Below, one piece after another: positions 14,431 through 38,184 of a stretch of DNA of 64,000 nucleotides. The stretch comes from Candidatus Latescibacterota bacterium. Lineage in GTDB: Bacteria; Latescibacterota; UBA2968; SICM01. Below the pieces are notes generated by a model. It searched no databases. It worked only from the letters and a program-made list of their open reading frames with translations, and was not told the origin of the DNA. Position numbers and translations under genes: made by a program. How positions within the stretch are numbered: position 1 is the first letter of the stretch; the number at the start of each line of letters is the position of its first letter. Location: assembly GCA_965217865.1 (NCBI GenBank), contig CBDCJO010000002.1, forward strand, positions 640,001-704,000, written 5' to 3'.

Positions 14431-14502
14431 GTGGCACAGGAGGAATTTAATTTTCTGCTTCGTTTTTTCAAGGCCCTGGGGAACGAAAGCCGGCTTAAGA
14501 TT
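14431..14502 (+). pseudogene. ArsR-family/DUF2087 regulator, 5' part (continues in frame at 37698)
   Basis: GGAGG RBS, GTG start, MAQEEFNFLLRFFKALGNESRLKI. Ends in the TSD TTAAGATT. Confidence 0.88.
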
Positions 14503-15228
14503 GGGAATTATATATTATTTTACCCTTGACATGCCGCCTGAAATTGCTTATATTTATATGTAAATAAAGGAGGTTATGTTATGGGAAAAGGGCCTGGAAA
14601 GTATTACAGGAAGGGGATTTCGTTATTGGACCTGACAAAACGTTTTCCGAACGACGGCATGGCGGAAGATTGGTTCGTTCGAATCCGTTGGCCTAATGGT
14701 GTTCGATGTCCGGCATGCAAGTCCAGCGACGTTCAATCACGTCCAAAAAGAAAGCCTCAACCTTACCGATGCCGGAAATGCCGCAAGGATTTCTCCATGA
14801 AAACGGGAACGTTGATGCAAGGATCAAATCTCGGGTATCAGAAATGGGCCATAGAAATTTATCTTTTTGCAACTGGAATGAAGGGTACGTCAAGCATGAA
14901 GTTGCATCGGGATCTCGGAATAACACAGAAAAGCGCATGGTACCTGGCTGTTTTCGTTCCGGCGCTTATCATCAACAGAACCGTTCCTGCGACAAGCATA
15001 AGCCATCCCCATTCAAGATTGATAAACAACCAGATGAAAAGACCGATTGATGTTCCACTAGTTATCCATAATGTAACCAGAAAGATTGAAATAACAGCCA
15101 GGATTAGGACGACACCCCATCTTCTTCACCATTAATCGATCCAAGCAATTCAAGTAAATGTTGTTTCGACATTCTCATATTTCTCCCCTCCGCATGACCA
15201 ATGAACTCATTCAAAATAAGGAGATTGC

Positions 15229-15357
15229 GTGAACAAAATCGAAAATAAAGGAAACATCGGTCGAGGAAAGACTAAAACTGGACGAAAACTAACACCTAAA
15301 AACCTCGCCCATGCCATTATCAATACTCCACCCCCAAAAAAGCGACAGCGTTCATGA
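15229..15357 (+). CDS. Small basic peptide (42 aa) inside the element; copy at 37091-37219
   Basis: AAGGAG RBS, GTG start, MNKIENKGNIGRGKTKTGRKLTPKNLAHAIINTPPPKKRQRS. Confidence 0.5.
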   Translation: MNKIENKGNIGRGKTKTGRKLTPKNLAHAIINTPPPKKRQRS

Positions 15358-15561
15358 CAGTTTGGGGGGTAAAGAGGCAGTAGGGCCTTGTGATGGAAAT
15401 ATCTCAAGCTCCAGGTGCTCGAAGAAAAACTTGGATTGCCAATAGATAAAGTATGGCAACAGAATACCAAACGTGCAAATCGTGAGAACTATCAACCCTA
15501 ATGACATGCAGAAGAATTCTCCAAAACTCCCCTTGAATACAACTCGACCAATGGAGTGCAT
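15352..15561 (-). CDS. Small membrane protein (DUF6693/YjgN-N-terminus-like); copy at 37214-37423
   Basis: FKGSFGEFF...LTICTFGILLPYF..W pattern. GGAGG RBS. Confidence 0.62.
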   Translation of the reverse strand: MHSIGRVVFKGSFGEFFCMSLGLIVLTICTFGILLPYFIYWQSKFFFEHLELEIFPSQGPTASLPPKLS

Positions 15562-15831
15562 ACTGGCATCCCTCCCTGTGGGGGTGACGTGACCTCCTTT
15601 GACACCCTAAGATGGGGATGCCGGGCCATGTCACCATCACGCAAGAGAAATGCGGGAAAGTTCTACCTATTCGCCTGGATACGGGGAATGACCCCATACC
15701 GGGTAAAAAACGGCTATTGTATTCAGCAGAGGACCCGACATGGCGGGCTCTTGCATATATGATGGTGACAAGGGTAAGATACTACAATGGATATGCGCTG
15801 CCAAGGGTAAAATAATATATAATTCCCTTTC

Positions 15832-16476
15832 CTATATATCCGAAAACAGATCCCCCAGGTGTGTCGCGTCACCCACACGACGTAAGACGGCATATTGCGG
15901 CGCACCGCCTTCGACCCGCCCCCTGGGCCAGAACTCGAACTCCGTGATGGATCCGTTGGGCATCGACTCGAACTCGTGCATCCATGGCATGTTATGGGGA
16001 ATTCCCACGGCCCACCTGATCGCCGCATCGATTGACCCCGCGTGAGAGACCACGGCCACCCGTTGTCCGGAATGCTTGTCGACAACCCCGTCATAGAAAT
16101 CTGCGATTCGTGCCGAGAACTCTTGGAGCGTCACACCGTCCACCCCTCCGTGTTCAGGCTTCCAGAACTGAAGATGGGGTTGTTCATGAAGCGTGTCGAG
16201 TGATGTCGTGCCGAGTTCAAACTCTTCAAGCCGGGAATCTGAGATCGGCTCGAGACCCAGCTTCTCGCAAATATACCCGGCCGTTTGCGCCGCTCGGGGG
16301 AGAGAACTCGTGTAGACCACATCGGGCGGAACATCCACAGCGAAGTGCGCTACGAGCGCCTCGGCCTGTCGACGGCCGAGCTCGCTGAGAGGCGTCATAA
16401 GCCCAATTTCTGAACTGCCCGGCGACCGGGCCTGGCCGTGCCGGATAAGAATCAATATGGTTGACGAAAATTTCAT
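15832..16476 (-). CDS. Histidine phosphatase family protein
   Basis: LIRHGQ, SSLPRAAQTA, VVSHAG. Confidence 0.9.
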   Translation of the reverse strand: MKFSSTILILIRHGQARSPGSSEIGLMTPLSELGRRQAEALVAHFAVDVPPDVVYTSSLPRAAQTAGYICEKLGLEPISDSRLEEFELGTTSLDTLHEQPHLQFWKPEHGGVDGVTLQEFSARIADFYDGVVDKHSGQRVAVVSHAGSIDAAIRWAVGIPHNMPWMHEFESMPNGSITEFEFWPRGRVEGGAPQYAVLRRVGDATHLGDLFSDI

Positions 16477-16509
16477 TGCCCCAATATAATGCTTCGTGTC
16501 GTTTACCTG

Positions 16510-17097
16510 TCAAGATTTGATCTCGAACCTGAATCCTCTATCCCATTCCGGTGTCGATTTATTGTATACGATCCTGAAAAGATCAGGAGTCCGTATCGCC
16601 TCCCACTCGTTAAATCCGAACGTAGGATCCAGATGATTCAGGAACAGACCGATAGCGTTTCCGTGAGAACAAGCTAAACCATTCTTTCCCGGGTTTGACT
16701 GGACAAACCTGAGGATGCATTGCTTCATCCGTTCCTGACAGACCCTCCCCGTCTCGCAATTCGGCAGGGCGAAATCGAAATCCGACCAGGCCTTCTTTAA
16801 AGTCTCACACCAGTTATCCAGGTAGAGTTCCGTGAGCTTTCTCTCCCCTAACTCGGGTTCGACAACAATCTGAAGACCCGATCGCTCACAAAAAGGCCGG
16901 ACCGTATCGATTGCCCGGGGATATGGGCTTGAGATCACCCGATCGATCCTGAGTACGGAAAGCTGGTCCTTCAGGGTCGAGGCCTGAACCTTTCCCTCAG
17001 ATGATAGGGGCCATTCTGGTTCAGGGACATCCGGACTAGGTGAGCTTCTGGCGTGGCGAAGCAGGTAAACAACAGTGATGTCCTCGTTTATTCCCAA
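16510..17097 (-). CDS. Histidine phosphatase family protein
   Basis: LLRHARS, SSPYPRAIDT, CSHGN. Confidence 0.88.
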   Translation of the reverse strand: MGINEDITVVYLLRHARSSPSPDVPEPEWPLSSEGKVQASTLKDQLSVLRIDRVISSPYPRAIDTVRPFCERSGLQIVVEPELGERKLTELYLDNWCETLKKAWSDFDFALPNCETGRVCQERMKQCILRFVQSNPGKNGLACSHGNAIGLFLNHLDPTFGFNEWEAIRTPDLFRIVYNKSTPEWDRGFRFEIKS

Positions 17098-17120
17098 ATG
17101 GCAATCCTTTTCGCCTGATG

Positions 17121-18167
17121 CTAATTATCCTCGACCGCATTTTCGACAATGAAGAATTTCCTTTGCTCACAATCGATTCGAGCTGTGATCCCATATGGCA
17201 AAATAAACATTGGATCTGTGTGCCCAAAATCCATCTGCGTCACGATCGGAAGATGATCCAGACCTTCCTCCTCCACAATAACCTTCTGAACTGCATCATC
17301 ATACTTGGGAAATTCACTGTGCGGTATTTGACCTCCTGGTCTTCCAATGATGATACCCGAAAGCCGATTCAGGATTCCCTGAGCAGCGTATACCCGCAGA
17401 GCCCTGATCACGCTTTCGGGCGGTGCTCCCTCCTCCGAGGTTTCGAGAAACAAGATGGCTCCATCCCACTGACTGTGATCAGGCCAGACCGAGGTTCCTC
17501 GAAGCCATTCCATAACCTCCAGGCATCCACCGACCAGATGACCCTCGAAAACGCCGTCGCCCTGCAAGAAATTCCAACCTTCACTCGAATTTAGTCGTCT
17601 TTTTCGGCCCTGGTTTTCGGGATTTTCCCACTTCAGATGTTCAACAGTCCAACCGTCCCGGTTGCTTGGGACCTCACCTATTGGCTTAGGTGAAAACAAA
17701 GTTTGTCTCACTGACTTGACCATGTACGGAAACATCCCCGTGTTTTCGGCGAATCCGGACATAATCGACGGTCCGTAAAAGGAAATAAGACCAGCCTTGA
17801 AGCAGGCCAAATGGGTAACAGTCGTGTCCGAGTACCCGAGAAAAATCTTCGGATTCTCTCTGAAAATATTTAAATCAAGGTGCTTCAGGGTCCGGATGGA
17901 ATCATCCCCCCCTATTGTGGAGATGACAGCCTTGATAGTCGAGTCCGAAAAGGCCTCCATGAGATCGTCAGCGCGTGCCTTAGGGTTCTTGGCAAGCCAA
18001 TCCGGATCCCTCAAAGTGTGAGGCATCTCGACTATTTCAACCGCAAATTCTTCCTGGAGTTGGCGCTTTCCGGCTTCGTACCTGTGTGGGCACGCACCCG
18101 GACCACCCCACGAAAGGGTTACCGTCGCAACCCTGTCTCCTTGATTAAGTTTCGGTGCTTTCAACAT
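17121..18167 (-). CDS. S66 peptidase (LD-carboxypeptidase/MccF-like)
   Basis: STIGGDDS, FLGYSDTT (catalytic Ser), LFLETSE, DFGHTDP. Confidence 0.92.
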   Translation of the reverse strand: MLKAPKLNQGDRVATVTLSWGGPGACPHRYEAGKRQLQEEFAVEIVEMPHTLRDPDWLAKNPKARADDLMEAFSDSTIKAVISTIGGDDSIRTLKHLDLNIFRENPKIFLGYSDTTVTHLACFKAGLISFYGPSIMSGFAENTGMFPYMVKSVRQTLFSPKPIGEVPSNRDGWTVEHLKWENPENQGRKRRLNSSEGWNFLQGDGVFEGHLVGGCLEVMEWLRGTSVWPDHSQWDGAILFLETSEEGAPPESVIRALRVYAAQGILNRLSGIIIGRPGGQIPHSEFPKYDDAVQKVIVEEEGLDHLPIVTQMDFGHTDPMFILPYGITARIDCEQRKFFIVENAVEDN

Positions 18168-18211
18168 TGCAGTTCTTGCAAGATATCTCTTTTAATAGGA
18201 TTTCGTGGGCT

Positions 18212-19183
18212 TCAATTAAATTTGCCACCCCACAATGCTTCACAAAATGCCTTAGGATTCTGAACCGGATGACGGTTAAGAAAGTCGGCGAGCGTTCCAA
18301 ATTCGTGTAACAGACAGAAAGTCGTGATGCTCTCCATGGTGGGTTTATCCAAGGCCAGGCCATATGATTCGAGAAAGACCCGGGTCAATTTTGGTTCGCC
18401 AAACGTCAGGTCTGCGATTGGGGCTAAGAAATCGTAGTGCGGATGTCCAATCTTCGCATCCCCGAAATCAATCAGCCCATTGATAACCCAGGAATCCGTT
18501 CCCTCAGTCAGCAGAACATGCTCATCGGTGATGTCCGCGTGCAACAGGACCGAAGCATCATCGAGAGGCATGTGATGAGAAAGCCGATCCCGGATCCAGG
18601 ATTTCCAAGGCTCTTCGACAACGTGGTGGTCATCGGCGCGACGAACCCGTTGACGGAAAAAATTTGCCCAATCGTTTCTGAGACCGGAATCAGGGTCTTG
18701 TGTGTGAAGGGTTCGAATCAGGACACCCAGCTGGCGAAGGAGATCGGTTTTTTGTGCAAACTGCAAATTGCCCCAGACCTTGCCTATCGGGTTACCATCC
18801 AGCTCACTCAGCACCAGGTAGTTCCAATTGTCGACCCGCCCATCGGCGAGTATTCTGGGTACGGGCAGGTTTGATGCGGATAAGAGCGACGCACGTTCTG
18901 CACGATAATCTTCCGGCCACAGATTGCAAAAAACTTTGATGATGGCACCATCAACCCGAAAGACAATGTTTGAGCCCTCCAATTCACGTTGAAGTGTTCC
19001 AGCATCAAGATTGTGACGCCTGCAAATCTCTTTCACACCGGGGGTGAACAGAGAGTCATCCCTGGAGACACTACTGAATTCTTCTTCGGTTGTGATATCT
19101 TTGAATAGCAAGATGACCCTCGAATGAAACGTCTCGCGCGTGTAATGTAGTGCGCTCGGGGTAAGAAAGTCTTCTTTGACCAA
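18212..19183 (-). CDS. APH/phosphotransferase-family protein (start uncertain)
   Basis: LPVPRIL, LLHADITDEHVL, GLIDFGDA. Confidence 0.85.
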   Translation of the reverse strand: MVKEDFLTPSALHYTRETFHSRVILLFKDITTEEEFSSVSRDDSLFTPGVKEICRRHNLDAGTLQRELEGSNIVFRVDGAIIKVFCNLWPEDYRAERASLLSASNLPVPRILADGRVDNWNYLVLSELDGNPIGKVWGNLQFAQKTDLLRQLGVLIRTLHTQDPDSGLRNDWANFFRQRVRRADDHHVVEEPWKSWIRDRLSHHMPLDDASVLLHADITDEHVLLTEGTDSWVINGLIDFGDAKIGHPHYDFLAPIADLTFGEPKLTRVFLESYGLALDKPTMESITTFCLLHEFGTLADFLNRHPVQNPKAFCEALWGGKFN

Positions 19184-19213
19184 AAAAATACAGTCAGAGC
19201 GACTCCCTTTCTT

Positions 19214-19492
19214 TCAGTGCCCGCCACTAAGCCACACCATAGCGGTCAGCTTTTTTAGCCTCCTTATGTATGCTTTGTTCGGGTTTTTTTGAGCCGATGG
19301 GTTCTTCATGACATTGAATATCTGCTCCGACAGAACCGAACCGATTGCGTGAATCGCTTCGTGTCGATCAAGACCTTCACGGAGGAGTCTTTCAAGCGTG
19401 ACCTGTTGGACTCGCTCTTGCTCATCCAGAGCCAGCCACTCATCTGGATCAGGGACCTGAAGCGGATCATAGAATTCCATTCTTATCCTCAC
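19214..19492 (-). pseudogene. DUF1841-like protein, probably internally deleted
   Basis: YDP...PDPDEWLALDEQER joined directly to RLLREGLDRHEAIHAIGSVL. Confidence 0.5.
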
Positions 19493-19636
19493 CTTCTTTG
19501 TGTAGAATGCATATGCCCATACTCAAGATGGCACACCGCACTACCTGCCTTAGGTTGCCGAAGTCGCCAGAACCGGGGAGTGCACGTGTTGGTTGCCGTC
19601 GGACAAAGAAAGGTATATATCCTCTTCTGCTTTCCC

Positions 19637-19832
19637 CTAGTGTCGTGTCCCAGAAGTTCCTTACAAAAGAAAGCCTCCAAAAACGTAGCGGTGGCTGTCA
19701 TTTTGATCGAGAGCGAGCGAAGAACGCACCAACTGTCTGATAGTTCGGGACATAGAGATCCTTCGCTCCGTTCAGGGTTTACAGACCGCTATCCGAGAAA
19801 TTATTGAAGGAATTTCCGGGACACGACACTAG
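19637..19832. mobile_element. IS630-type MITE (196 bp including both CTAG)
   Basis: 26-bp TIRs ctagtgtcgtgtcccagaagttcctt / ctagtgtcgtgtcccggaaattcctt. The outer 15 bp match the right end of the IS630 at 45135-46305. Confidence 0.85.
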
Positions 19833-21359
19833 CAGCCCGTTGAAGAACTACCTTTCAACACACATAAACGGAAAAGACGCCTGGAGTGCGGGTCGGATAA
19901 ATCAAGGTAAGGAGATTGAGCAGGAGACGCTGATAAGAGGTTAAAAAGGTGACCGAGGGCAGCAAAGCGTGATTGTAGGACGAGCAGTAGACGCTGCAAG
20001 GCCTTGGCCAGGTCCTGGAGGGCCTTCGGAGTACCTACGCCCATCACTTTGCGCATGAGCAGAGCCAGGTTGCAGCCCCCGATGTGGATCAGCAAACGCT
20101 TGAGGATATTGCCGCGGTCTCTCAAGTGCAACCTGCGCATGCCACCGGTATCATATGTGTGAGCGATGGTTCTTTCCACCCGTTCTGCACGACTTCGGCG
20201 CAAGGCCTTGCCGCGATCTCCCTTGATCCGGCGTCGATTCGCATATACCGCGGCCTGCTCATCTCGTCGGCCGTTCCACTTGCGGCGTCCCCGATCCGGT
20301 TCTGAAATGTAACTCCGGATGCCGCCTTGCTTCAGACTGGTCAATACATCGTTGCTATGATATCCTTTGTCCGCAACCACCTCCCGTATACGCTGTCTGT
20401 GCAAACGTTTGGCAGCTTTTTCGTCCTTCGCGACCTGCTTGAGATTGAGCGGCGCCTCGAGCAGCGTCCAGGACAACGACTCGGTATCTCCTTCATCTGC
20501 TCCCGACAACGCCACTGCCACAATGGCATTGGTGTCCAGATCCACCGCGTGCTCCACCTTGTGCGCCATGTGCGTGCGACCGTCCTTCATCTTAGCGATC
20601 TTGGCATCCGGGTCGTGCGGGTGCTCCCAGTCCTGGTTCGATCCCTTCTTCGGTCGCTTCTTATCGATCTTGGACAAGTCCTCGCGGGTAGGCGTTTCAA
20701 TGCCCGAGGCCTTGGCCAGATTCTCAAGGAATGCCTGGTAGCCTTCACCCGTGTCACGGCGTACAATGCTGCGCATCGCGGCGTTGGCCTCCAGTGTCGT
20801 AGCATCCACGCCCAACGTCTTCCCCTTCACCAGACCCGCTTTGCACAAGACCCTCAGGATCCACTTGAAAACCGCTTCGTGAACTTCCAAGGGAAGCCGA
20901 TGCCGGATGCGAGACAGGCTGGAATGATCCGGGGTCTGTTCGTCAAGGGCATACCCCAAAAACCGGCGCAACGTCAGCGAGTCAGATACACGCCATTCGA
21001 TCCCACGTTCCGAATCAAGTCCCTCGAAATACCCAATCAAAAGCATCCGAAAATAAACCCCGGGCGGAATGCCCTTGCGACCCATATGAGGAGCGTAATA
21101 CCGCTGGCAAAGCCCTTCGACGAACTCGTCGAACCCGTTCGCCTCCAATACCTGATTCAGCTTCTCGTAGAACGGATGACCCGGAGATTTCACCAAAGTG
21201 TTCGATGCGATGAACAGGTTTTCCTGTCTCTGTCGTCCTCGTTTTCCCATTGCCATTTGCTCGTCCTCCCTTCTCAGTTTGAACCTGATATATCATAGGA
21301 CCAAACCACAAGGAAAGACAACAGTCATCTTGGCATAAACGCACTTTTTCAACAGGCTG
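19833..21359 (-). mobile_element. IS1182/IS5-like insertion sequence, copy 2 (475-aa transposase 19829-21256)
   Basis: Near-identical to copy 1 but 1 bp longer, so the ORF reads through the TIR and stops in the flanking TAG. Confidence 0.93.
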
Positions 21360-21367
21360 CTATGGGT

Positions 21368-21865
21368 CTATTCAAGGAGGAGCTGCCGGCTGACTTCTAT
21401 TGGTAACTCATAATCGAGCGGCCCACAGAGGGTTTCAGCAAGCTCGCGATCAAGGTCGATCAATGAAACCGGCCAACCCCAATGGCTGACCATGGCACGC
21501 ACCCCCAATGAGAAATCGCGCATCGAGCCGAGCACGCTGCGACTGGCGGTCCGATCAAACCGGGCACAGCCCATCTCCTGGAGTTCCTCCGCAATTCGTG
21601 GGCACGAGACGTCAAAAGAACGCAGAAGGGCCTCGAGAGATGCCGCGAGCCGATCCGGCAATCCTGGCAAGTTCTTAGCGGGCACAACAACGCTCAGAAG
21701 AGATCGTTCACTTGTGCAAAGGACCAGCCGTGTGTGTCCGATGTTCAGACGGTTCGCGTACCAGTCTCCCAACCGTGTCGTCGGCTCCGGTGCGTTTCCC
21801 ATGTCGCTCGGGGCGAGAGACCCAAGCCTTTTCAGCAATGGCTGCGTACACCTGATGTTGTACAT
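21368..21865 (-). CDS. DUF6933-like protein
   Basis: MYNIRCTQPLLKRL, LGDWYAN, RTASRSVLGSMRD. Confidence 0.65.
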   Translation of the reverse strand: MYNIRCTQPLLKRLGSLAPSDMGNAPEPTTRLGDWYANRLNIGHTRLVLCTSERSLLSVVVPAKNLPGLPDRLAASLEALLRSFDVSCPRIAEELQEMGCARFDRTASRSVLGSMRDFSLGVRAMVSHWGWPVSLIDLDRELAETLCGPLDYELPIEVSRQLLLE

Positions 21866-21948
21866 AGGAGATTGTGTTCCGGTTGACTTCCTTCCAAGAC
21901 TACGCGAGACCTCGGTGTGGCCACCCTCGATGTCCGAAGATCCAGCGT

Positions 21949-22702
21949 TCATTCATTTGGTTTTTGTGCTACTGCAATTAATCTCTTAGAATCTACACCA
22001 TATTCTTCCCCATCCAGGCTTCCATACAACCTGAGGTTTTTGAAACCCGTTTGTTCCAAACGGTCCTTCAATTCTTGACCTGAATATATCGAATGCTCGA
22101 ATGCGAAAGTTCGAGTTTCACCGTCCTTTATGAGAATCCACTCGGTTTTGATTCGACCCCAATCCTTGACCACCTCACGGCGTTGAACCAGAATGGTCCC
22201 ATCTTCCTCGTCGCTTGAAGAAGTGGGTTGAAAAACCTTTGCGAGCCACTCCTTGCTAACCACGTCTATCAGGCACGAACCACCCGGTTTGATACTCCGA
22301 TAGATATTTCGTAAGACCCTGAGATTGTCATCTTCCTTTTCGAAATATCCGAATGATGTAAACATGTTTAGAACCAAATCATACGATGCGTCACGCACAA
22401 AATCTCTCATGTCCTTCTGAACCCATTCAACTTGCACGCCTTCAGCAATTGCCCTTTCTCGTGCCTTCTTCAAAAGAAATGGTGTTATGTCTACCGACGT
22501 AACCTTGATACCACGTTTGGCCAGTAATACAGAGTGTCTCCCGGGTCCACAACATAGATCCAGGATTGATTCCCCCTGAAAATCCACAAGCTGAAGGATG
22601 TTCTCAACCTGTTCCTCGGCCCGTTCAAACCTGTCCCCTGCTTGGGAACATATAAGGGTAGACAGTTGCCCAGAACTCTTCGTTTTCAAACCATTCGGTC
22701 AT
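21949..22702 (-). pseudogene. Class I SAM methyltransferase with an N-terminal frameshift
   Basis: ILDLCCGPGRH, NMFTSFGYF. The natural start MTEWFENEEFW (22702) is in another frame. Confidence 0.8.
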
Positions 22703-22746
22703 GAATTCTAAGATTGCATTTAACGGTCAACAAGCTCAACCAGCCC

Positions 22747-23514
22747 TCAGGTTTTCCTGGTTCTTGGAGTTGGCTTCTGTGCCTTAAATATACCGGTAGC
22801 TTTGGTGATATGAATAACACCGTGCGCAACCAAAGGCTCCACTTCAGTAATTGCTAAAGAATCTTCATATCGATGTTGTTCAACGTTTGAAAACCACTGG
22901 GAGACCTCCGGCCAACCTGACTCAAGGCTGAATCCGACTTCAGGGACGCCATAAGCCTTTGGGGCCACCTGCTTCACCCATTCTCGAAGTTCCCGATTGC
23001 TTTCGATTCCATTTGTCGTTGCATAGAAATACCCGCCAGGTTTCAAAACCCTGCTAATCTCCGAAAAGGCTTTGGGCCTATCCGGCACATGATAGAGCAT
23101 GTGGTTAGCAATCACAGCATCAAAGGTCTCATCTCCAATTGGAATCGACCGAACATCACCTGCTTCAAACCTGAACACACGAGGATTATACCTTAGGTTC
23201 TTCCGAGCCTCCCGTACCATCCCCGGAGAGAGATCCGCCAGAGTTATGTCCCATCCTTCAGGGATACGGTCGATGTTATTAACCCATAAAAGGCCAGGGC
23301 CACAACCTACATCGAGGATGCGGCCTTGTGATGGGAGATTGAGTCGATCGAACACCCAACGAGGCCATCCATATTTGTTTGTGCTGAACCGCTCGTGAAG
23401 GTCGATTCGCGCGTGCAAATTTGACGAATTCTTATATTGATCGGATACGAACGTTGGATCTGATAATCTATGCACTCGCTCCTCCAGAACCTCAATGGTC
23501 ATCGATGTCAACAA
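22747..23514 (-). CDS. Class I SAM methyltransferase (start uncertain; C-terminus may be shortened)
   Basis: ILDVGCGPG, VIANHMLYHVPD, RVLKPGG. Confidence 0.82.
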   Translation of the reverse strand: MLTSMTIEVLEERVHRLSDPTFVSDQYKNSSNLHARIDLHERFSTNKYGWPRWVFDRLNLPSQGRILDVGCGPGLLWVNNIDRIPEGWDITLADLSPGMVREARKNLRYNPRVFRFEAGDVRSIPIGDETFDAVIANHMLYHVPDRPKAFSEISRVLKPGGYFYATTNGIESNRELREWVKQVAPKAYGVPEVGFSLESGWPEVSQWFSNVEQHRYEDSLAITEVEPLVAHGVIHITKATGIFKAQKPTPRTRKT

Positions 23515-23550
23515 AAAAAGGAAGATAAGCTTGGCAGTTTTGGATGTGAG

Positions 23551-24066
23551 TCATACCGCATCCACTACCCCAACTTTGTCGGGAGACAGGAAAACTTCCT
23601 GTCCTTCACCTCGATGAGGAGGCATTTTACTAATACAAAGCATCAGAAAGAGAAGGCCTTTTCCATATGAAGAAAGCTCGTAATGGTTCCTCTTTGAGGT
23701 TTCAAGAAGATACGAGGTTAGAGCGAGTTCTTTCAGGTGGTGCTGTAACTGGCCTGGTTTCATGCCTGTCTTTTCTTTGAGATCTGAGAAAGTGTGGTGG
23801 CCTTCATATATGGCCTTCATTAAATGAACGCGTTGTTCATTGGAAAATGCGGTTGCAATACGTGCAACCTCAAATTCTGAACAATCGAGGTTCTTTATCG
23901 AAGATCCGTTCAGTGAAGAACCTTCAAACCAGAAGGTTGTGTCCGATTTCGTTTTGGGTAAGATTAATTGATATGAGACCCATCCTTCCCCTTCTCCAAG
24001 GTGTTTACAGAGTTTTCGATACACTCGATCCAAAGATTTCATGTCTTCTTGAAATTTTTCGGACAT
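23551..24066 (-). CDS. Winged-helix (ArsR-like) transcriptional regulator
   Basis: AFSNEQRVHLMKAI, GQLQHHLKEL. GGAGG RBS. Confidence 0.75.
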   Translation of the reverse strand: MSEKFQEDMKSLDRVYRKLCKHLGEGEGWVSYQLILPKTKSDTTFWFEGSSLNGSSIKNLDCSEFEVARIATAFSNEQRVHLMKAIYEGHHTFSDLKEKTGMKPGQLQHHLKELALTSYLLETSKRNHYELSSYGKGLLFLMLCISKMPPHRGEGQEVFLSPDKVGVVDAV

Positions 24067-24116
24067 TCCGCCACCTCCGATTTGAATAAAACATAACGAT
24101 ATATTGGAATACCCAT

Positions 24117-24145
24117 ATTCTAGTAAGTTTGTAGATCCTTGTCAA
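24117..24145 (-). promoter_or_regulatory. sigma70 promoter
   Basis: TTGACA-N17-TAGAAT upstream of the wHTH gene. Confidence 0.7.
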
Positions 24146-24173
24146 GCCAATATGTTTATGCTTTTCGCAAATC

Positions 24174-24782: not shown

Positions 24783-24805
24783 GTTTGGCGCTGCAAAGCG
24801 TCATT

Positions 24806-27604: not shown

Positions 27605-27763
27605 TTAGGTCTATCGAGTATACGGGGGTAGCCAGTATATGAGAGGGACCGGGCTTTTCGGTCCCTTATCTTATTTTCACCAGATCCCGACAAAACCCCA
27701 GATCCTTCTAACTGCCAAGATCGTGCTTGACATCAAGGCATCAAATTGCTTATGTTTTGATGT

Positions 27764-28437: not shown

Positions 28438-28506
28438 GGAAGCCTCGGAACCCTGGATGTGGTGCCAAGGATCGATATTTCACTCTAATAGAAAAGGGTC
28501 GTGAGA

Positions 28507-29055
28507 CTAAAAACTCACGACCTTTATCATTTGACGAGTTTTATTCTGCTCCCGGACTATCAGCCTGTCAAGCATCCAAGCACCTGCGAATAGAGCGCTG
28601 TGAACCAGGTCCGGGCGACGGTTGAGCGCAACGAAGCTAATGAGGCCACCCATGCTATGCCCCACAACCTGGATCTTGGCTCCCTCGTACTGTTGGCTCA
28701 GTGTCTCCAGAAACACAACAAACTTGTCACCAGTCTCGAGATTGTCTCGACGCCAGTCGTAGGCGAAGGAATGAACCGGCCGTCCGGATCCCACCGCCCA
28801 ATCCAGAAAAGAGGCGTAGATGTCCTGCCCGGCCACCGTGCGCAATGGTGTTGTCGGGACAAGCTCATCGAAGTGCTGAACATCTCCTTCCCAATGAATT
28901 GGCAAACTCAAATCAGGAGAGCTGAGTCCCAGTGCCTGCCACCAGGTGATCCAGCGCCACCGACCTTTCGAGTCGGATAATGCGCTCCCTTTGAAACCAT
29001 GGATGAAGACTAGGGGAAGAAGTGGCTTCCCTGTCCTGATTTTTCTCGCTTCCAT
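28507..29055 (-). pseudogene. Alpha/beta hydrolase (LCAT-like), C-terminally truncated
   Basis: VFIHGFKGS, FAYDWR, VVGHSMGG. Ends shortly after the nucleophile. Confidence 0.75.
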
Positions 29056-29132
29056 AAACCTTGTGGTCCTGGTAATCGTCCGGGATTACTTATCCCTATA
29101 TGCCAGCTGTTCAACAGGTCAAATAGGCGACA

Positions 29133-30165
29133 TCATGCCGAGTGTTCGCTACTCAGGCCGACCACTCGGGCCTTGTCGGCCAGCCGCAACGCCCTCCGCA
29201 CCATCAGTCCTTTGAGTCGGGTAAACGGCTTCCAAGCTAGGATTAGTAACTGGCCAAGGTCTACCGGGTGTCTTGTGAGCAACTCGGGGCCGTTCTTGGT
29301 AACCAGCACCGTATCGGAGTGTCGGACACCGCCGATGTCACGCAAGTAGATGCCTGGTTCGACGCTAATCACCATATTTTCGGCCAACCGGTCCTCACGC
29401 CTTCCGCTATCCAGGGCGCTTCATGGTTGCCGAGTCCGAATCCGTGCCCGGTGCGGTGCAATCGCTGGTCTTCGCCGTTGTATCCTTCCTTCCGTAAATA
29501 ATCGTTCACCACGGAGTCAAGGTCGCTGCACGGCAAACCTGGTCGAATTATGCCGAACGCGATGCGGCGGGCCTCCATCATGGCCGCAAAGGTCTTGCGA
29601 GCCTCGGTTGATGGCGCTGCGGTGAAATATGATCGTTCGCACTCTGCAGCGTACCCGTTAACCCGGGTAAGCACCATCGCGACATGCGGCCCTTCACCGA
29701 GCCGGTCATTGAGGTCCGGGACCGAGTGCGGGCATTGCACTGCGAGGCGCGGCCCATGTCGCCATCACTACTTTGGTAGTCAACGCCTCCCAGTCATGGA
29801 CTTCGCGGATGATTCGGGAGGTCACCTCCCGGGTTTCGGCGAAACCCTCCGCAACAGTCGCCCCGAAATAGGATGCTGCCAGCAACGCTCCACCCCGAAG
29901 TCGGCGTATTGAGCGGCCCGCCGGATCATCTTGATCTCGGCTTCGGACTTAACCAGGCGCAGTCTTTCGACAAGCGGTTCTACCCGGAGCGAATAGTCGT
30001 GAAGCTGAAGGGCGATCTCTTGCCGGAGTCCTGGCTCAACACCGATCTCTTGAATGTTGCCGATATGATCCCTTAAGCGACCCGGCCAGTCTCGACCTGC
30101 GGGGGCGGGGTAATCCCAATAGGTATGGATATTCTCCACCGGGATATTGTGAGCCTTTTTCATAT
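29133..30165 (-). pseudogene. M24 Xaa-Pro peptidase, multiply frameshifted and 5'-truncated
   Basis: LRLVKSEAEI, HRTGHGFGL..HEAP and SVEPGIY...GVRHSDT lie in three different ORFs. Confidence 0.82.
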
Positions 30166-30359
30166 GCTCGTGTCGCTCATCGCGGGGACCACGGGCACCC
30201 CCAAGCCAATTGGAAGAGATCCGCACCAGCAGCACGTGCTGCATCGCAGAAGCGATCTCGTGCGGTGACATAATCTGAAGAGAAGGTATCTGACGCCATA
30301 AGGTTGTTTTTCCCTTGGGTGACAGTGAGGATAACTATGAATAGCACCGCGATTTTCAT
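30166..30359 (-). pseudogene. Secreted DUF2817/M14-like protein, N-terminal fragment
   Basis: Signal-like start followed by FSSDYVTARDRFCDAARAAGA. GGAGG RBS. Confidence 0.55.
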
Positions 30360-30375
30360 GGGTCACCTCCGCAAC

Positions 30376-30388
30376 TTAACAGCGTTAA
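30376..30388. promoter_or_regulatory. Putative TetR operator 2
   Basis: TTAAC-AGC-GTTAA. Confidence 0.6.
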
Positions 30389-30433
30389 CTGTCCAGGCAA
30401 AAAAAAGACTGCCTTTGTCAAATGTCTAAAAAT

Positions 30434-31039
30434 CTATACCTTCAAACCTTCGATCATCGTATCGATCACCTGGTTGACCAGTTTGTCTCTCTCAACCCAG
30501 GGAAAATCGGGAAACGTGATGATCAAGGACGTGACACCGTGGACCGCTGACCACACCGCTTGACCGGTGGTTTCGACATCCACCTGGCGGAATTTCTCCT
30601 GTCGAATACATTCTCTGACCACCGCGTGCAGGTAGTCAAACATCATTGTGGCGGGGGAGCCTTCTGGCAGGCCTAAGCCCTTCTGGTACTGGGGACGGAG
30701 GATAAACGTCAGTTTGTAATCCTCCGGATATTTAAGGCCAAATTCGGCATATGCCCGTGCGCATTTTCGCAGGGCCTCGACTGGGTCGCTCAGATCTTGA
30801 AAGAGCGTCTCAAGCGTGTTTAGCAAGTTTCTGTGCGTTTCGTCGCAGACAGAAGCCAGGAGTTCTGCTTTGTTTTTGAAATAAAGGTAGATCGTCGTCG
30901 GAGAGTACTCGATCTTATCCGCAACCTTTCGCATGGAGACGTTCTCGTAGCCTTCATTTACGAAAAGTTCTCGTGCCTCATCGATGATTAGCTGGCGCAG
31001 CTTTCCTTTGTCCCTGGCTCTGCGTTCTTGAACACCCAT
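30434..31039 (-). CDS. TetR/AcrR regulator (WHG-type C-terminus)
   Basis: GYENVSMRKVADKIEYSPTTIYLYFKNK, WSAVHG. Confidence 0.93.
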   Translation of the reverse strand: MGVQERRARDKGKLRQLIIDEARELFVNEGYENVSMRKVADKIEYSPTTIYLYFKNKAELLASVCDETHRNLLNTLETLFQDLSDPVEALRKCARAYAEFGLKYPEDYKLTFILRPQYQKGLGLPEGSPATMMFDYLHAVVRECIRQEKFRQVDVETTGQAVWSAVHGVTSLIITFPDFPWVERDKLVNQVIDTMIEGLKV

Positions 31040-31072
31040 ATATCCTTGCTTTCAATTTGTGTCGTTAATTTA

Positions 31073-31114
31073 CTTAACGATGTTAAGCATACCACACGTT
31101 TCGCCTTTTGTCAA
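31073..31114 (-). promoter_or_regulatory. sigma70 promoter overlapping putative TetR operator 1
   Basis: TTGACA-N17-TATGCT, and the palindrome CTTAAC-GAT-GTTAAG at 31073-31087. Confidence 0.7.
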
Positions 31115-31291
31115 GAGTATTTTTCATTTCTGGGTCATGTTCTTCTAATCCTGCTATGTTGTGTTACATCAGTATTTTTTCTAAATCAATTATCACTACA
31201 TAATTAGGCTCATGCGTGCTACGCTTTGTAAAATAACTCACTTCACGCTCATCCCTTGAACCCTGCGTCTTTGTGCGCCCCGTCGAAAGAA

Positions 31292-31696
31292 TCACCCTGA
31301 AGATCCGACCGTGGGCGTCCACCGCCCCTCGACTCGATAAGCTTCTTCTTCGCCCGGCCACGGCGGCATCGTGACGCCGACCGCTGCAAGCGGCTCGTTT
31401 TCCAAGCACCGAAACTGGAAATGCGTCCCCACCGGAATCGTGATGCAGACACCCGGATCCACGCTCACGATCTCTTCCCGTTCATCCTGCTTACGCCACA
31501 TCTCCCCATGCCCTTTCAGGAAGAACCAGATCTCTTCCACCGTCCGATGGGCGACCGCAGCCGATGTACGGTCGGGCCCGAGCTCGAAATGGGCGAGGCT
31601 GCCGCCGTCGAGCTGAAGCAGGATACGGACGTCCGATCCATCCAGCGCAACCACATCCCGTTCTACGGGAAGGCGTTTGGTGTCAAATTCATCCAC
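31292..31696 (-). CDS. Cupin-domain protein
   Basis: HRTVEEIWFFLKG, IPVGTHFQFR. Confidence 0.85.
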   Translation of the reverse strand: MDEFDTKRLPVERDVVALDGSDVRILLQLDGGSLAHFELGPDRTSAAVAHRTVEEIWFFLKGHGEMWRKQDEREEIVSVDPGVCITIPVGTHFQFRCLENEPLAAVGVTMPPWPGEEEAYRVEGRWTPTVGSSG

Positions 31697-31754
31697 CCGT
31701 CGATTCCTTTCTCTGCTTGGGCCGAATCAAATCGATATGGGGGGACCGGAAACA

Positions 31755-31797
31755 GAAAAGGCCTGTAGATCCTGTTGAGGCGGCTACAGGCCTTTTC
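31755..31797. terminator. Hairpin terminator downstream of the peroxiredoxin
   Basis: gaaaaggcctgtag...ctacaggccttttc inverted repeat. Confidence 0.65.
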
Positions 31798-31845
31798 GTT
31801 TTTGGTTAAGATTCCTTTGCCGCGTCTCCCGACGACGCAACTTGG

Positions 31846-32505
<660 letters not shown>

Positions 32506-32959
32506 GGGGAGCCTCCTAAATTGATTACTAGTGGGGAGTTTTTCAAGCCCGGCAAACTGAATAGAAATAATACAAATTTGGGGGAAGCGCAAGGAAAATA
32601 GTCGTCCCTCTGACCCCCGACCTCCGGCCTCCGATCCCAGCTTTTCCTCTTCTTACCACTGCCACCTGCTACTTCCCTTTGCCTTCTCTTGTCTGACGAC
32701 TGAATTGAATTCATGTTTTCTTCTGGTGGGGGATGGGCGGAGGGGTCAATCTTCAATATTCGATCTTCAATCTCCTCCGACCTCGGCCTTTGCCTTTCCT
32801 GCCACTGCTACTGCTACTGAAATCTGCCGTCTCACGGGTTATTCAATCTTCAATCTTCCCTGTCCCTCCTTGACTTCCCCATGGCTTTGTTTATCTTGAT
32901 TGTCCTTTGAAAGCTTTCACCATCTCCGGACAACGACCCACAACAGGACGAATATAGCA

Positions 32960-34339
32960 GTGCAGCCCAAATTGACACAGGGAACGGTTGCCCGCACCCT
33001 GGTGGTCCTCTCGGTTCCGATGCTCGGCGGCATTTTTTCAGCCGTCTCTTTCAACCTCGCCGACACCTACTTCGTCTCCCGGCTGGGCACCAGAGAACTT
33101 GCGGCCATGAGCTTCACCTTCCCCGTGGTCATGGTCCTTATGGGGATCGCCTGGGGATTGGGCACCGGGACCACCTCCGTGGTCGCACGATCGATCGGAC
33201 GCGGTGACCAATCGACCCTTCGAAGATTATCTTCGGACAGCCTAACCCTCTCCTTCGGGGTCGTGTTCTTCTTCGCTGGGATCGGGATGCTTACCATCTC
33301 ACCTCTGTTCACCCTCCTGGGGGCCTCCCCCGATATCTTGCCTCTTATCCGGGATTACATGATGATCTGGTATCCGGGGATCGTATTCCTGGTGATACCT
33401 ATGGTGGCCAATGCCTCGATTCGCGCCACCGGAGATACCAAATTCCCTGCGCTTATCATGATCGCTGCCACCGGGACCAACTTCATACTCGACCCGTTGT
33501 TCATCTTCGGGTGGTTCGGGTTTCCACGGATGGAGCTCAAAGGCGCTGCCGTGGCGACGGTTATCGCCCGCGGCGGAACGATGGTCGCCTCGTTGTTGAT
33601 CCTTCACTTTCGGGACCGGATGCTGGACTTTTCGCCCCCGGATCTGAAAGCCGTCTGGCGTTCGTGGAAAACGATTGCCCACATCGCCGTGCCGGCTTCC
33701 GCGACCAATATCATGACCCCCCTCGCAGTCGGGGCGATCACGCGTATGGTTGCGGGATACGGTCCCGAAGCCGTGGCGGCCTGGGGGGCGGGTTCCCGCA
33801 TCACGATGTTTACGTTGGTTCCGGTGTTCGCGCTCTGTTCCGGGCTGGTTCCGTTTATCGGGCAGAACTGGGGGGCGGAGCGATTCGATCGGGTTGCCCT
33901 GGGAAGGAAATACGGCTACGTGTTCGCGGCCTTCTGGGGTGTCTTGTCCCTGGTGGTTTTGCACCTGGCGGCAGAACCGATTGCACGGCTTTTCAGCCAC
34001 GAAGCGGAGGTGGTTCGCGAGATCGTGCGCTACCTGTGGATTATGCCGATCGGTTATGCCGCACTGGGTATTCTGAGCGTAATCGAAGAAACCTTGAACG
34101 CCATCGGTAAACCCGTGATCGCGTCTGTGCAGACGCTGGTGTATACGTTCGGGTTCTACCTTCCCCTCGGAGCCCTGGGATCGAACCTGCACGCGTTGAC
34201 CGGATTGCTTTCAGGGTTGGCCGCTGCGGATCTACTGGGAGGGTTGGTGGGAATGGTGCTCGTTCGCTGGATTTGTCTTAAGGGTGAGCGGATTTGTCGG
34301 ATCCGGAATGCCGAATCATCCACAATCCCTGCTGGCTGA
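32960..34339 (+). CDS. MATE efflux transporter
   Basis: LADTYFVSRLG, RATGDTKFP, NFILDPLFIFG, GAAVAT, GQNWGA. Confidence 0.92.
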   Translation: MQPKLTQGTVARTLVVLSVPMLGGIFSAVSFNLADTYFVSRLGTRELAAMSFTFPVVMVLMGIAWGLGTGTTSVVARSIGRGDQSTLRRLSSDSLTLSFGVVFFFAGIGMLTISPLFTLLGASPDILPLIRDYMMIWYPGIVFLVIPMVANASIRATGDTKFPALIMIAATGTNFILDPLFIFGWFGFPRMELKGAAVATVIARGGTMVASLLILHFRDRMLDFSPPDLKAVWRSWKTIAHIAVPASATNIMTPLAVGAITRMVAGYGPEAVAAWGAGSRITMFTLVPVFALCSGLVPFIGQNWGAERFDRVALGRKYGYVFAAFWGVLSLVVLHLAAEPIARLFSHEAEVVREIVRYLWIMPIGYAALGILSVIEETLNAIGKPVIASVQTLVYTFGFYLPLGALGSNLHALTGLLSGLAAADLLGGLVGMVLVRWICLKGERICRIRNAESSTIPAG

Positions 34340-34508
34340 GGTCCGTTGGGGACAGGGTGAAAATTGCATTATGCATCGTCAATCGACGATCTTCCGTCTC
34401 ACGACTGACGTTCTTTCAATATTCAATATTCGATCTTCAATTTCTCCTGACTTCCGGTCCCTGTCTTTTCTATTCCTGCCACTGCCCCCTGACCTCCGAC
34501 TACCGACT

Positions 34509-35378
34509 CTAATACATCTCCTTCGCATTTTTCGGCAATCGCCTGACGTGCTTCAGGTGATTCGTCACCCGAAAGTCATCCCCCTCAGGATATTCAAATC
34601 CATAAACATCCGCAACGTGTTTGGCAACCGTTCGAAAGAGGTCTCCCATTGTAAACAGGGATTCCCATATGCTTTCGAAATTCGAGTCGGAATAGGTATT
34701 TTCCAGCTTCGTCCAGAGAGACGGCTCGATATCAATCTTGATATATTTTCCCTCCTTGCCGGGCGATTTTTCGAATCCGGTTCTGATCCCGAAATACCAT
34801 CCCATCATCTTCATGAGGGAGGGTCTGATCCACAAGTCTATCATGGACTTCGCATATGTCAGCTCTTCCCTCCAGATCCCCTTTGCCGCATAGGGACAGA
34901 CCCACCAGAACTCATTACAGCAATCATCGAATGCCTTGGCAGTCGGTTCCTTTTGCAGGTAGTCCCTGTCGCTCGCCGGCGATATCTCGCCGATAATATT
35001 GTCTTTATCGACAAGAACAACAGTAAGGGAGTGTTTAATCGCATCCCGGATGGAATCCAATGGTGCAAAACCAATATCGATCCGGTTTCCATCCATAAAC
35101 TGCATAAGATATCCGTAATGTCCGTCATTTTTGGGTGGCGGATCTTCCATGTCCTCGGGCGTCTGGATAATCATAAGTTCACCGAATTGTTTTAAAAAAT
35201 CCCGGTCCCTCACATAGGGATCCACACAATTCACGAAGCACGCGATATCATAATCCTGGAAAAAATCCCTCTTTACGTTCGGGTTGGCACGGGACCCGAT
35301 CATGACCGCCACCCGGATGTTATCATCCCCAGTAACGAAATTCAAAATCAGATCCATCATCTCTTTTTCGCTTCTCAT
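34509..35378 (-). CDS. aadK: Aminoglycoside 6-adenylyltransferase family (AadK/ANT(6))
   Basis: MRSEKEMMDLI, GSRANP..DFFQDYDI, NRID, CCNEFWW..PY.AKGIWR. Confidence 0.9.
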   Translation of the reverse strand: MRSEKEMMDLILNFVTGDDNIRVAVMIGSRANPNVKRDFFQDYDIACFVNCVDPYVRDRDFLKQFGELMIIQTPEDMEDPPPKNDGHYGYLMQFMDGNRIDIGFAPLDSIRDAIKHSLTVVLVDKDNIIGEISPASDRDYLQKEPTAKAFDDCCNEFWWVCPYAAKGIWREELTYAKSMIDLWIRPSLMKMMGWYFGIRTGFEKSPGKEGKYIKIDIEPSLWTKLENTYSDSNFESIWESLFTMGDLFRTVAKHVADVYGFEYPEGDDFRVTNHLKHVRRLPKNAKEMY

Positions 35379-35429
35379 CCCGTTCATCCATAAAATATTG
35401 GAATTAGCTGGAATCAATACACCTCCGGG

Positions 35430-36236
35430 CTACACCGTCCGCCTTGCCAGCATGTATCCGAACATCGCCGTCTCCGGATATCGGCCGCCCGCGTATTCCA
35501 GCAGCGTGCGCCTCAAATCGGCTTCGAAGCCCTCCGCCCGGTCCCCCAGAACCCGCTTCGATACCCCTGAAGTCGAATACAGGTACCCGACGAAATCGTC
35601 CAGCGTCCATACGTGCGGCGTGGGAAACTCGTACGAGGCGACATCTTCGAAACCCGCCGATTGCAGGACCTCCTCAAAATCCGGATCCTTCTGAGCGCTC
35701 GGAATGTTCGTTACAACGCGTGGCTCTCTGCCGGTCCACCTGCGGACCACCTCAGACGCCAGGGACTGCCATTTCACCTGGCCCCTTCCATAGTTGACGT
35801 ACCACAAGATGGCCAGGCCGCCCCCCGGCTGCAGCCACTCCAGACCACGCCGTGCGATCAGATCCTGATCCAGCCGATGGAAAGCTTCTCCGATCGTGAT
35901 CAGCTCGAACGCGCCCGGCGGCGCCTCCAGGTCTTCCGCCCGGGTGACCATCCAGGTCAGATTCGTGGCCCCGCTTGTCACGGCCTTCTCCCGGCCGACC
36001 TGGATCATCTCCGGCTCCGGATCGATTGCCCAGACCTCCCGGAAGAAGGGCGCCATGGCAATCGCCACCCGTCCCGGTCCGCATCCGAGATCCAGCAGCC
36101 TGCCATTTCCGGTAACCCCAGCCCGGTTCCGCAGATCGTCAATGAGCGACTCCGGGTACGGCAGTCGATACCGGGCGTAATATTCCGCCGTGCCGGCAAA
36201 GGCGTCAACTGGGAAATTCGGGATCCTTGATGTCAT
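35430..36236 (-). CDS. Class I SAM methyltransferase
   Basis: YARYRLPYP, LLDLGCGPG, IGEAFH. Confidence 0.88.
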   Translation of the reverse strand: MTSRIPNFPVDAFAGTAEYYARYRLPYPESLIDDLRNRAGVTGNGRLLDLGCGPGRVAIAMAPFFREVWAIDPEPEMIQVGREKAVTSGATNLTWMVTRAEDLEAPPGAFELITIGEAFHRLDQDLIARRGLEWLQPGGGLAILWYVNYGRGQVKWQSLASEVVRRWTGREPRVVTNIPSAQKDPDFEEVLQSAGFEDVASYEFPTPHVWTLDDFVGYLYSTSGVSKRVLGDRAEGFEADLRRTLLEYAGGRYPETAMFGYMLARRTV

Positions 36237-36364
36237 ACCACACAGATCCTAGAACTCTGCACCGCTTGCTTATAAGCGCATCGACCTCTTCTTCGAGACA
36301 TCATAATCCATTGCTTCTCACGTTTCACGTTTCACGGATTCTTTTACACTTCACGTTTTCCTAT

Positions 36365-37689
36365 GGGAATTATATATTATTTTACCCTTGACATGCCGCC
36401 TGAAATTGCTTATATTTATATGTAAATAAAGGAGGTTATGTTATGGGAAAAGGGCCTGGAAAGTATTACAGGAAGGGGATTTCGTTATTGGACCTGACAA
36501 AACGTTTTCCGAACGACGGCATGGCGGAAGATTGGTTCGTTCGAATCCGTTGGCCTAATGGTGTTCGATGTCCGGCATGCAAGTCCAGCGACGTTCAATC
36601 ACGTCCAAAAAGAAAGCCTCAACCTTACCGATGCCGGAAATGCCGCAAGGATTTCTCCATGAAAACGGGAACGTTGATGCAAGGATCAAATCTCGGGTAT
36701 CAGAAATGGGCCATAGAAATTTATCTTTTTGCAACTGGAATGAAGGGTACGTCAAGCATGAAGTTGCATCGGGATCTCGGAATAACACAGAAAAGCGCAT
36801 GGTACCTGGCTGTTTTCGTTCCGGCGCTTATCATCAACAGAACCGTTCCTGCGACAAGCATAAGCCATCCCCATTCAAGATTGATAAACAACCAGATGAA
36901 AAGACCGATTGATGTTCCACTAGTTATCCATAATGTAACCAGAAAGATTGAAATAACAGCCAGGATTAGGACGACACCCCATCTTCTTCACCATTAATCG
37001 ATCCAAGCAATTCAAGTAAATGTTGTTTCGACATTCTCATATTTCTCCCCTCCGCATGACCAATGAACTCATTCAAAATAAGGAGATTGCGTGAACAAAA
37101 TCGAAAATAAAGGAAACATCGGTCGAGGAAAGACTAAAACTGGACGAAAACTAACACCTAAAAACCTCGCCCATGCCATTATCAATACTCCACCCCCAAA
37201 AAAGCGACAGCGTTCATGACAGTTTGGGGGGTAAAGAGGCAGTAGGGCCTTGTGATGGAAATATCTCAAGCTCCAGGTGCTCGAAGAAAAACTTGGATTG
37301 CCAATAGATAAAGTATGGCAACAGAATACCAAACGTGCAAATCGTGAGAACTATCAACCCTAATGACATGCAGAAGAATTCTCCAAAACTCCCCTTGAAT
37401 ACAACTCGACCAATGGAGTGCATACTGGCATCCCTCCCTGTGGGGGTGACGTGACCTCCTTTGACACCCTAAGATGGGGATGCCGGGCCATGTCACCATC
37501 ACGCAAGAGAAATGCGGGAAAGTTCTACCTATTCGCCTGGATACGGGGAATGACCCCATACCGGGTAAAAAACGGCTATTGTATTCAGCAGAGGACCCGA
37601 CATGGCGGGCTCTTGCATATATGATGGTGACAAGGGTAAGATACTACAATGGATATGCGCTGCCAAGGGTAAAATAATATATAATTCCC
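36365..37689 (+). mobile_element. Non-autonomous IS1595-family element, copy B
   Basis: Direct repeat of 14503-15827 (offset 21862) with identical ORF translations. Confidence 0.93.
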
Positions 37690-38184
37690 TTAAGATTCTT
37701 GGTTATCTTTCAAACCAGGAGCGGAGTGTGGAGGAGCTGGCGATTCTGCTCGAATTGAAGGAGCCGACGGTGTCCCACCATCTGAACCGGCTGAAGGAGC
37801 TGGGTCTGGTCCGGATGCGTGCGGACGGGAACACGCATTTCTACAGGTTGGATGGCGGGGCTTTGAGAAGTATGAACCGGGAGGTCTTCACGCCCGAGAA
37901 GATGGCGTCTCTGGTCGATGATCGGGGAGCTGAAACCTGGGAGGAGAAGGTGCTCGGGAGCTTCGTCGAAGGGAAGCATCTGAAGCAGATTCCTGCGAGC
38001 CGGAAAAAGCGGGGGGTTATTCTCAAGTGGCTGGTGGGCAAGTTTGAGGAAGGGGTCGAGTATCCCGAGCGGGAGGTGAATGAGAGGCTCAAACAGTAAT
38101 CATCCGGATTGTGCGACGCTGAGACGGGAGTTTATTGCGGAGAGGTTGATGGAGAGGGAGAAGGGGATGTACAGGAGAGCGTAA
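37690..38184 (+). pseudogene. ArsR-DUF2087 regulator, 3' part
   Basis: LGYLSNQERSVEELA...PTVSHHL, LKQIPASRKKR. A +1 insertion (TAAT CAT) precedes HPDCATLRREFI. Confidence 0.88.

Follow-up and report, generated by a model that had tools for sequence, protein, structure and literature searches.

How did about 20.5 kb of DNA come to lie inside a regulatory gene, between two identical insertion sequence (IS) copies whose target duplications have been swapped? We studied this arrangement in a 64,000-nucleotide stretch of a Candidatus Latescibacterota genome. The window (this whole stretch) is C2:640001-704000 of a two-contig, 6.43-Mb genome, labeled G000, with contigs C1 and C2. The interrupted gene encodes an ArsR-DUF2087 regulator, and the bracketing copies are a defective derivative of an IS1595-family element. 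The evidence supports an arrangement other than a simple composite insertion: flanks were exchanged between two element copies, via either recombination or cointegration.

The two element copies lie in the same direction and do not differ at any of their 1325 bases (coordinates are in Table 1). Their terminal inverted repeats are 29 bp long with one mismatch. An 8-bp word, A, stands to the left of copy 1 and to the right of copy 2, and a second 8-bp word, B, stands to the right of copy 1 and to the left of copy 2. The chance that both words match at these fixed positions is between 2e-10 (uniform bases) and 7e-9 (80% A+T). An earlier note on this DNA had described twin IS1595 derivatives with two swapped pairs of duplications, and our comparison confirms this. 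Its argument that a simple composite transposon would not leave an inner duplication is also supported, as the flanks are swapped reciprocally between the copies. The bracketed block was found at one location in the G000 assembly.

The genes on either side fit these joints, as the earlier note had also proposed. An intact relative of the regulator (P0001; 185 amino acids, 93% identical) aligns by its residues 1-24 to the part that ends with A, and by its remaining residues, in frame, to the part beyond copy 2. This second part carries an additional one-base frameshift and a stop at 38097-38099, unchanged in contigs from four of four runs. At the inner ends, the stop codon of a histidine phosphatase (15832) lies inside B and the start codon of a methyltransferase (36236) is 121 bp from B. 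Both genes are on the minus strand, so that joining the inner ends sets the phosphatase just beside the methyltransferase and its aadK-like neighbor.

Table 1. Features of the arsR-DUF2087 region, in window coordinates.
Feature	Positions	Strand	Basis or remark
arsR-DUF2087 regulator gene, 5' part, 24 codons	14431..14502	+	alignment to P0001 residues 1-24
Outer duplication A, left copy (TTAAGATT)	14495..14502	+	
Element copy 1, defective IS1595-family derivative, 29-bp inverted repeats	14503..15827	+	
Truncated transposase: zinc ribbon without a DDE domain, about 123 amino acids of transposase up to a cut at element base 446	14581..15135	+	PF12760 match, no PF12762; compared with longer remnants
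Inner duplication B, left copy (TTTCCTAT)	15828..15835	+	element-free B allele in X5
Two histidine phosphatases, S66 peptidase, APH-family phosphotransferase, small open reading frame	15832..19492	-	Pfam
Miniature inverted-repeat transposable element (MITE), about 195 bp, bounded by TA on each side; its ends resemble those of the IS630-type element at 45134-46311	19637..19831		
IS1182-type element copy 2, inserted simply at the end of the MITE; does not close the block	19832..21362	-	G000 has 87 full copies; site empty in contigs of X5 and X8
DUF6933 protein, two methyltransferases, helix-turn-helix protein, GNAT acetyltransferase, unknown open reading frame	21368..25348	-	Pfam
hicA, cut after codon 67; candidate closing joint between 25905 and 25906	25705..25905	+	
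FapA-like gene with internal deletion; only copy in G000	26156..27125	+	
Response regulator, antitoxin-PIN pair, hydrolase cut at about 28582, frameshifted M24 peptidase, TetR, cupin, peroxiredoxin	27230..32592		
MATE transporter (+), ANT(6)/AadK-like adenylyltransferase (-), methyltransferase (-)	32900..36236		Pfam, NCBIfam
Inner duplication B, right copy (TTTCCTAT)	36357..36364	+	
Element copy 2, identical to copy 1	36365..37689	+	
Outer duplication A, right copy (TTAAGATT)	37690..37697	+	
arsR-DUF2087 gene, 3' part, in frame with 5' part, later frameshift and stop at 38097-38099	37698..38184	+	

Evidence for the junctions came from contigs of public sequencing runs (X1, X4, X5, X7, X8, and X9; X5 and X7 are from the same sample, S5). 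The junction from the 5' part of arsR to the element is present in contigs of X5 and X7; from the element to the phosphatase in X4, X7, X8, and X9; from the methyltransferase side to the element in X5 and X8; and from the element to the 3' part of arsR in X5, X7, X8, and X9. These contigs prove the junctions and not their phase, because they hold 26-28 letters on the element side (below the 31-letter bar of the contig method), none of them spans either element copy, and one study among the public runs may be the source sample of the G000 assembly.

An element-free form of the inner site is also present. In one of four runs, among the loose ends listed, a contig of X5 passes from 36364 directly to 15836 onward, which shows that B is a true duplication, made in DNA that was already continuous, and supports an ancestral site at which the methyltransferase and phosphatase sides were adjoining. 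X7 also branches at 36364. In sample S5, the contig from the element into the 3' part of arsR is unbranched over A, whereas B has both element-bearing and element-free forms, so the arsR insertion appears to be fixed where the B site is still mixed. Together with the second lesion in arsR, this suggests that A was hit first and B later.

The element itself appears unable to move on its own. Its open reading frame matches the zinc ribbon Zn_Tnp_IS1595 (PF12760, E = 1.9e-9, residues 23-69) and has no match to the catalytic domain DDE_Tnp_IS1595 (PF12762) in Pfam; in NCBIfam, it scores 24 bits against NF033547, for which the cut-off is 75. After the transposase part, unrelated DNA follows. Given this absence of a catalytic domain, we consider the element a defective, non-autonomous IS1595-family derivative. 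Membership in the family also agrees with the inverted repeats and with the 8-bp target duplications (two words, swapped, with B single in the element-free allele). The element ends may resemble the ISNwi-group consensus. Passages of PMC8101967 describe an N-terminal Zn_Tnp_IS1595 zinc ribbon in all groups of the family except IS1016.

The G000 assembly has five copies of this element, with 0-1 differences across the 446 bases they share, and none of the five has a whole transposase; longer remnants elsewhere end at residue 174-190. Neither G001 nor G002, which are family relatives of G000 (same order, other genus), was found to carry the element. Apart from the 1325-bp pair, one copy, of 857 bp (C2:3568329-3569185), has both ends, unmatched flanks, and no partner among the other copies. 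Another (C1:85375-88447) lies within a sodium-proton antiporter-like gene and is broken by a multi-copy IS, with its right end gone. In run X8, depth over the passenger stretch of the element (37022-37599) far exceeds that over the transposase end, and a foreign loose end is present there; this inner stretch occurs in a further context in that run.

With moderate confidence, we favor a reading in which arsR was hit first and the inner site later, and homologous recombination between the two copies then exchanged their flanks and relocated a block that is probably native to the chromosome. The element would first have inserted in arsR and duplicated A. Later, a second copy, mobilized in trans or by a parent element that has since been lost, would have inserted between the phosphatase and the methyltransferase and duplicated B. 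Host homologous recombination over 1325 identical bases would then have swapped the flanks, and one further joint, independent of the element and most likely the cut in hicA at 25905, would have closed the block. This last step could also have come first (as a small circle integrating at arsR) or last (as a split of the chromosome at the two copies followed by rejoining), with the same product. The earlier note had proposed that a circle was integrated by recombination or cointegration. The exchange of flanks stands; a free 20.5-kb circle does not follow, since splitting and rejoining the chromosome yields the same sequence. We prefer recombination because elements of the family insert simply in G000, no cognate transposase is present, and RecA acts on dead IS26 copies: in passages of PMC4894685, transposase-dead IS26 copies still take up circles via RecA.

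Where was the block closed? B and the site of IS1182 copy 2 (see below) are both continuous, so the block was closed at another joint. Several genes between 25.3 and 30.4 kb are cut. The match of hicA to a HicA protein of G002 stops at 25905. A contig of X4 begins at 25876, exactly 30 letters before 25905, as expected if a second continuation exists after 25905; X8 passes through this point unbroken. As judged from these letters, the cut in hicA is the best candidate for the closing joint, and we offer it as a lead.

Several observations weigh against the recombination reading. No donor scar was recovered: neither the tail of hicA and hicB nor the second half of the cut hydrolase was found in the 96%-complete G000 assembly, and a candidate donor site at C2:5525.0-5525.8 kb (the empty slot of a FapA-like gene) was rejected, as it has no sequence in common with the cargo. 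The phasing of the two element copies rests on the assembly, as neither is spanned by a read or contig, and an intermediate in which one copy has B at either side would not be visible in contigs this short. Lastly, of the three copies of this element that have both ends, none is flanked by its own duplication. A flank-rearranging transposase would account for this as well, although two of these three are the very pair that was picked for that trait. Two other leads to a donor site, an 87% repeat at 25330-25554 and a 92% repeat at 29497-29723, proved to be paralog fragments and were rejected.

The strongest alternative is a single replicative (copy-in) transposition event. The copy already in arsR would have been used in trans by an IS1595-type transposase to attack B; the element and B would both have been duplicated, and the DNA fused or split in the process, leaving the swapped flanks directly. 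This is more economical (a single event instead of two), it fits an order of A first and B later, and passages of PMC4471558 treat the same flank pattern as a tracer of replicative transposition for IS26. The arrangement indeed has an IS at both junctions with the newer duplication split between them, as in a cointegrate, and recombination between older insertions leaves an equal pattern. The failure of this element to keep its duplications (zero of three two-ended copies) can be set against 23 of the 28 other two-ended IS1595-type elements in the assembly, which keep their own duplication of 7-8 bp. The 1325-bp pair is the only reciprocal swap among these 31 elements, a count that covers IS1595 elements of seven end types and omits one-ended elements, the methylase element at 11746, and its twin. 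A possible helper, by our inference, is a 2226-bp IS1595 element that matches the defective element at 13 of the first 14 bases of its ends. This element is whole, carries two passenger open reading frames, and is present in three identical copies, one of them at C2:4296392-4298617.

Other evidence makes copy-in transposition less attractive. Each of the three whole 2226-bp copies retains its own 8-bp duplication. The transposase of this candidate helper is the closest whole transposase in G000, yet it is just 54% identical to that of the defective element, and no whole cognate transposase was found among the IS1595-type matches in the assembly. Among the results listed by our literature searches on IS1595 cointegrates and mechanism and on swapped duplications, no report announced cointegration by this family, with most subscription papers outside those searches. 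According to passages of PMC12561309, the related ISApl4 has its own duplications at 35 of 39 copies and forms excised circles of the element. We therefore regard copy-in transposition as unlikely. Slightly more doubtful is the specific claim that 20.5 kb of chromosome moved in one step, by an IS26-like cointegrate or intramolecular copy-in, when a transposase of the IS1595 family acted on a non-autonomous copy in trans.

It is improbable that the pattern is an assembly misjoin, in which two separate simple insertions (A-element-A and B-element-B) were crossed by the assembler. The two copies are 100% identical and the public contigs cannot phase them. The population also has more than one form of the region, and the genome was scored as 9.3% contaminated (and 96% complete). 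In sample S5, contigs across 18971-26345 have small indels whose depth is 7-12 against 30-33, a sign that a second strain is present. However, the assembly carries 87 full copies of IS1182 within two contigs, and IS1595-type elements of 2226 bp (three identical copies), 1804 bp (three), and 4602 bp (two) keep matched duplications. Because these longer identical copies keep their own duplications, we conclude that the assembly phases repeats of more than 1325 bp. Also, the interior of the cargo is continuous over its only long repeat, and therefore a misjoin here needs either a free circle or a second misjoin.

Contig depth was not decisive. In X5, the cargo (about 20-34) and the arsR flank (28.6) were roughly equal, and in X8, parts of the cargo (12) were up to twice as deep as the flank (5.5), but contig depth is not copy number. 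GC (guanine-cytosine) skew gave no signal.

We also asked what kind of DNA the block contains. The cargo has toxin-antitoxin genes, enzyme families that are common in accessory regions, and several deletion scars, as might be seen if a foreign plasmid or island with one element copy had been captured at arsR and had then lost its replication genes. Scans of the cargo's open reading frames gave no match to a replication, relaxase, or integrase family (Pfam and NCBIfam, plus PHROGs for eight unannotated frames), which bears out the earlier note's statement that no replication gene is present. Among exact repeats of at least 17 bases, there was no match of the tRNA-end or att type. A match to the plasmid collection covered no more than 3% of the cargo, in one record. 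The block thus lacks the marks of a plasmid or integrative element (a replication, relaxase, or integrase gene, or an att repeat).

Furthermore, the cargo contains a FapA-like gene that is single-copy in all three genomes of the order. In G001 and G002 it sits among genes whose orthologs group at C2:5520-5528 kb, and G000 lacks it there. We consider this gene native because of its single-copy status and its conserved chromosomal context in the two relatives. It fails to fix the donor site, because the relatives are of another genus and the slot has no scar. The cargo is probably made of native chromosomal genes, and capture from a foreign plasmid or island is very unlikely. Nor were two replicons fused, as in a cointegrate in the strict sense: the cargo has no replication gene and holds a family-conserved chromosomal gene.

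Pieces of the cargo are also present in a diverged strain from another study (X1), with 28 of 30 bins covered. No relatives of the phosphatase were found in metagenome contigs. In the closest-relative search, both the arsR gene and the AadK-like gene had matches in distant hosts only, at no more than 69% identity. The ANT(6)/AadK-like enzyme scored 288 of 420 bits, below the NCBIfam cut-off, and the APH-like enzyme is also below its curated cut-off.

The least probable origin is the one in the earlier note: that the circle had been excised between two IS1182 copies, one of which was left inside. The cargo does contain one of the 87 copies in the genome, and some copies elsewhere have common flanks. 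But contigs of X5 and X8 (two of four runs, from two studies) join 19636 to 21360; the MITE and IS1182 copy 2 are both absent, and the joint falls precisely on the duplicated TA. (This joint has 27 letters on its short side, below the 30-letter caution, and its flanks are unique in the genome.) IS1182 copy 2 is thus a late simple insertion, rather than the junction of formerly distant flanks that would mark a translocatable unit, and genes continue on the same strand across it. Seven of the 87 copies genome-wide sit exactly at the TA of a MITE or of IS630-type ends, which identifies the MITE-type end as a preferred target of IS1182. All 87 copies have a duplication of TA only, so pairing of IS1182 flanks cannot reveal a donor scar. 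With its flanks directly joined in two studies, excision between IS1182 copies is extremely unlikely.

Elsewhere in the genome, the IS1182 copies at C2:3357844, 3581639, and 3673603 have 14-base flanks in common, a sign of IS1182-linked duplication or rearrangement. Two copies (C2:3800188 and 3801745) lie back to back in opposite orientation with few bases between them. In the window, an inverted IS1182 fragment runs into an FtsX/MacB permease gene (51634-53600).

Three more observations concern the surroundings. A whole IS1595 element at 11746-14387, which carries a DNA methylase-HNH fusion gene and has its own 8-bp duplication, ends 43 bp before the start of arsR and has a near twin at C2:1812 kb. 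On the other side, 39221-40555 encodes a fusion of an ECF sigma factor with a phenylalanyl-tRNA-synthetase-type catalytic domain (PF01409), with 92% copies at C2:189 kb and partial copies at C2:272 and 558 kb. Finally, an EF-Tu-like open reading frame (named by the look of its sequence) lies among insertion sequences at C2:2637701-2638885, beside a fragment of an M24 peptidase.

How does this arrangement compare with known systems? Non-autonomous IS1595 derivatives with passenger DNA exist (MIC/tIS); these have intact ends, a truncated transposase, and unrelated DNA inside, and so does the element studied here. Cargo between two same-direction copies of one IS is also the arrangement of a pseudo-compound transposon. 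In passages on IS26 cointegrates (PMC4471558, He et al. 2015), direct IS copies stand at both junctions, none has its own duplication, and identical words flank single ends of two copies, as here. In contrast with those cointegrates, the element here is an IS1595 derivative without a catalytic domain, and both duplications are complete and swapped reciprocally around cargo that is not a replicon. In translocatable units of IS26, as passages of PMC4894685 (Harmer and Hall 2016) describe them, a one-IS circle is taken up at a resident IS, via RecA if both transposases are dead, which also gives IS-cargo-IS. Those units come from IS-IS recombination or adjacent deletion and close at the IS, whereas here the closing joint lies elsewhere and is IS-free, because the inner duplication shows that the IS entered DNA that was already continuous.

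The nearest case within the family is Tn7560, a pseudo-compound transposon bounded by ISApl4 (IS1595 family, IS1016 group; PMC12561309). It likewise has direct IS1595-family copies around its cargo and 8-bp A+T-rich duplications, and its relocation by recombination between ISApl4 copies is proposed in passages of that source. Unlike our copies, ISApl4 is whole and active, and the copies of its transposon are described there as having no matched duplications, as opposed to the swapped pairs around our defective copies.

The locus is thus probably a fresh instance of the known cointegrate or pseudo-compound-transposon pattern, produced by an ordinary mechanism. If recombination between the two insertions is the right reading, it is a clean natural record of dead IS copies reshuffling a chromosome, and a good example rather than a new mechanism. 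On that reading, the order of events can still be read in living populations: the arsR site appears fixed, and the inner site and the IS1182 site are still mixed. The ways in which IS1595-family elements move have been little tested. If it were true that transposases of this family form cointegrates, the locus would matter more, since the family bounds resistance transposons such as Tn7560.

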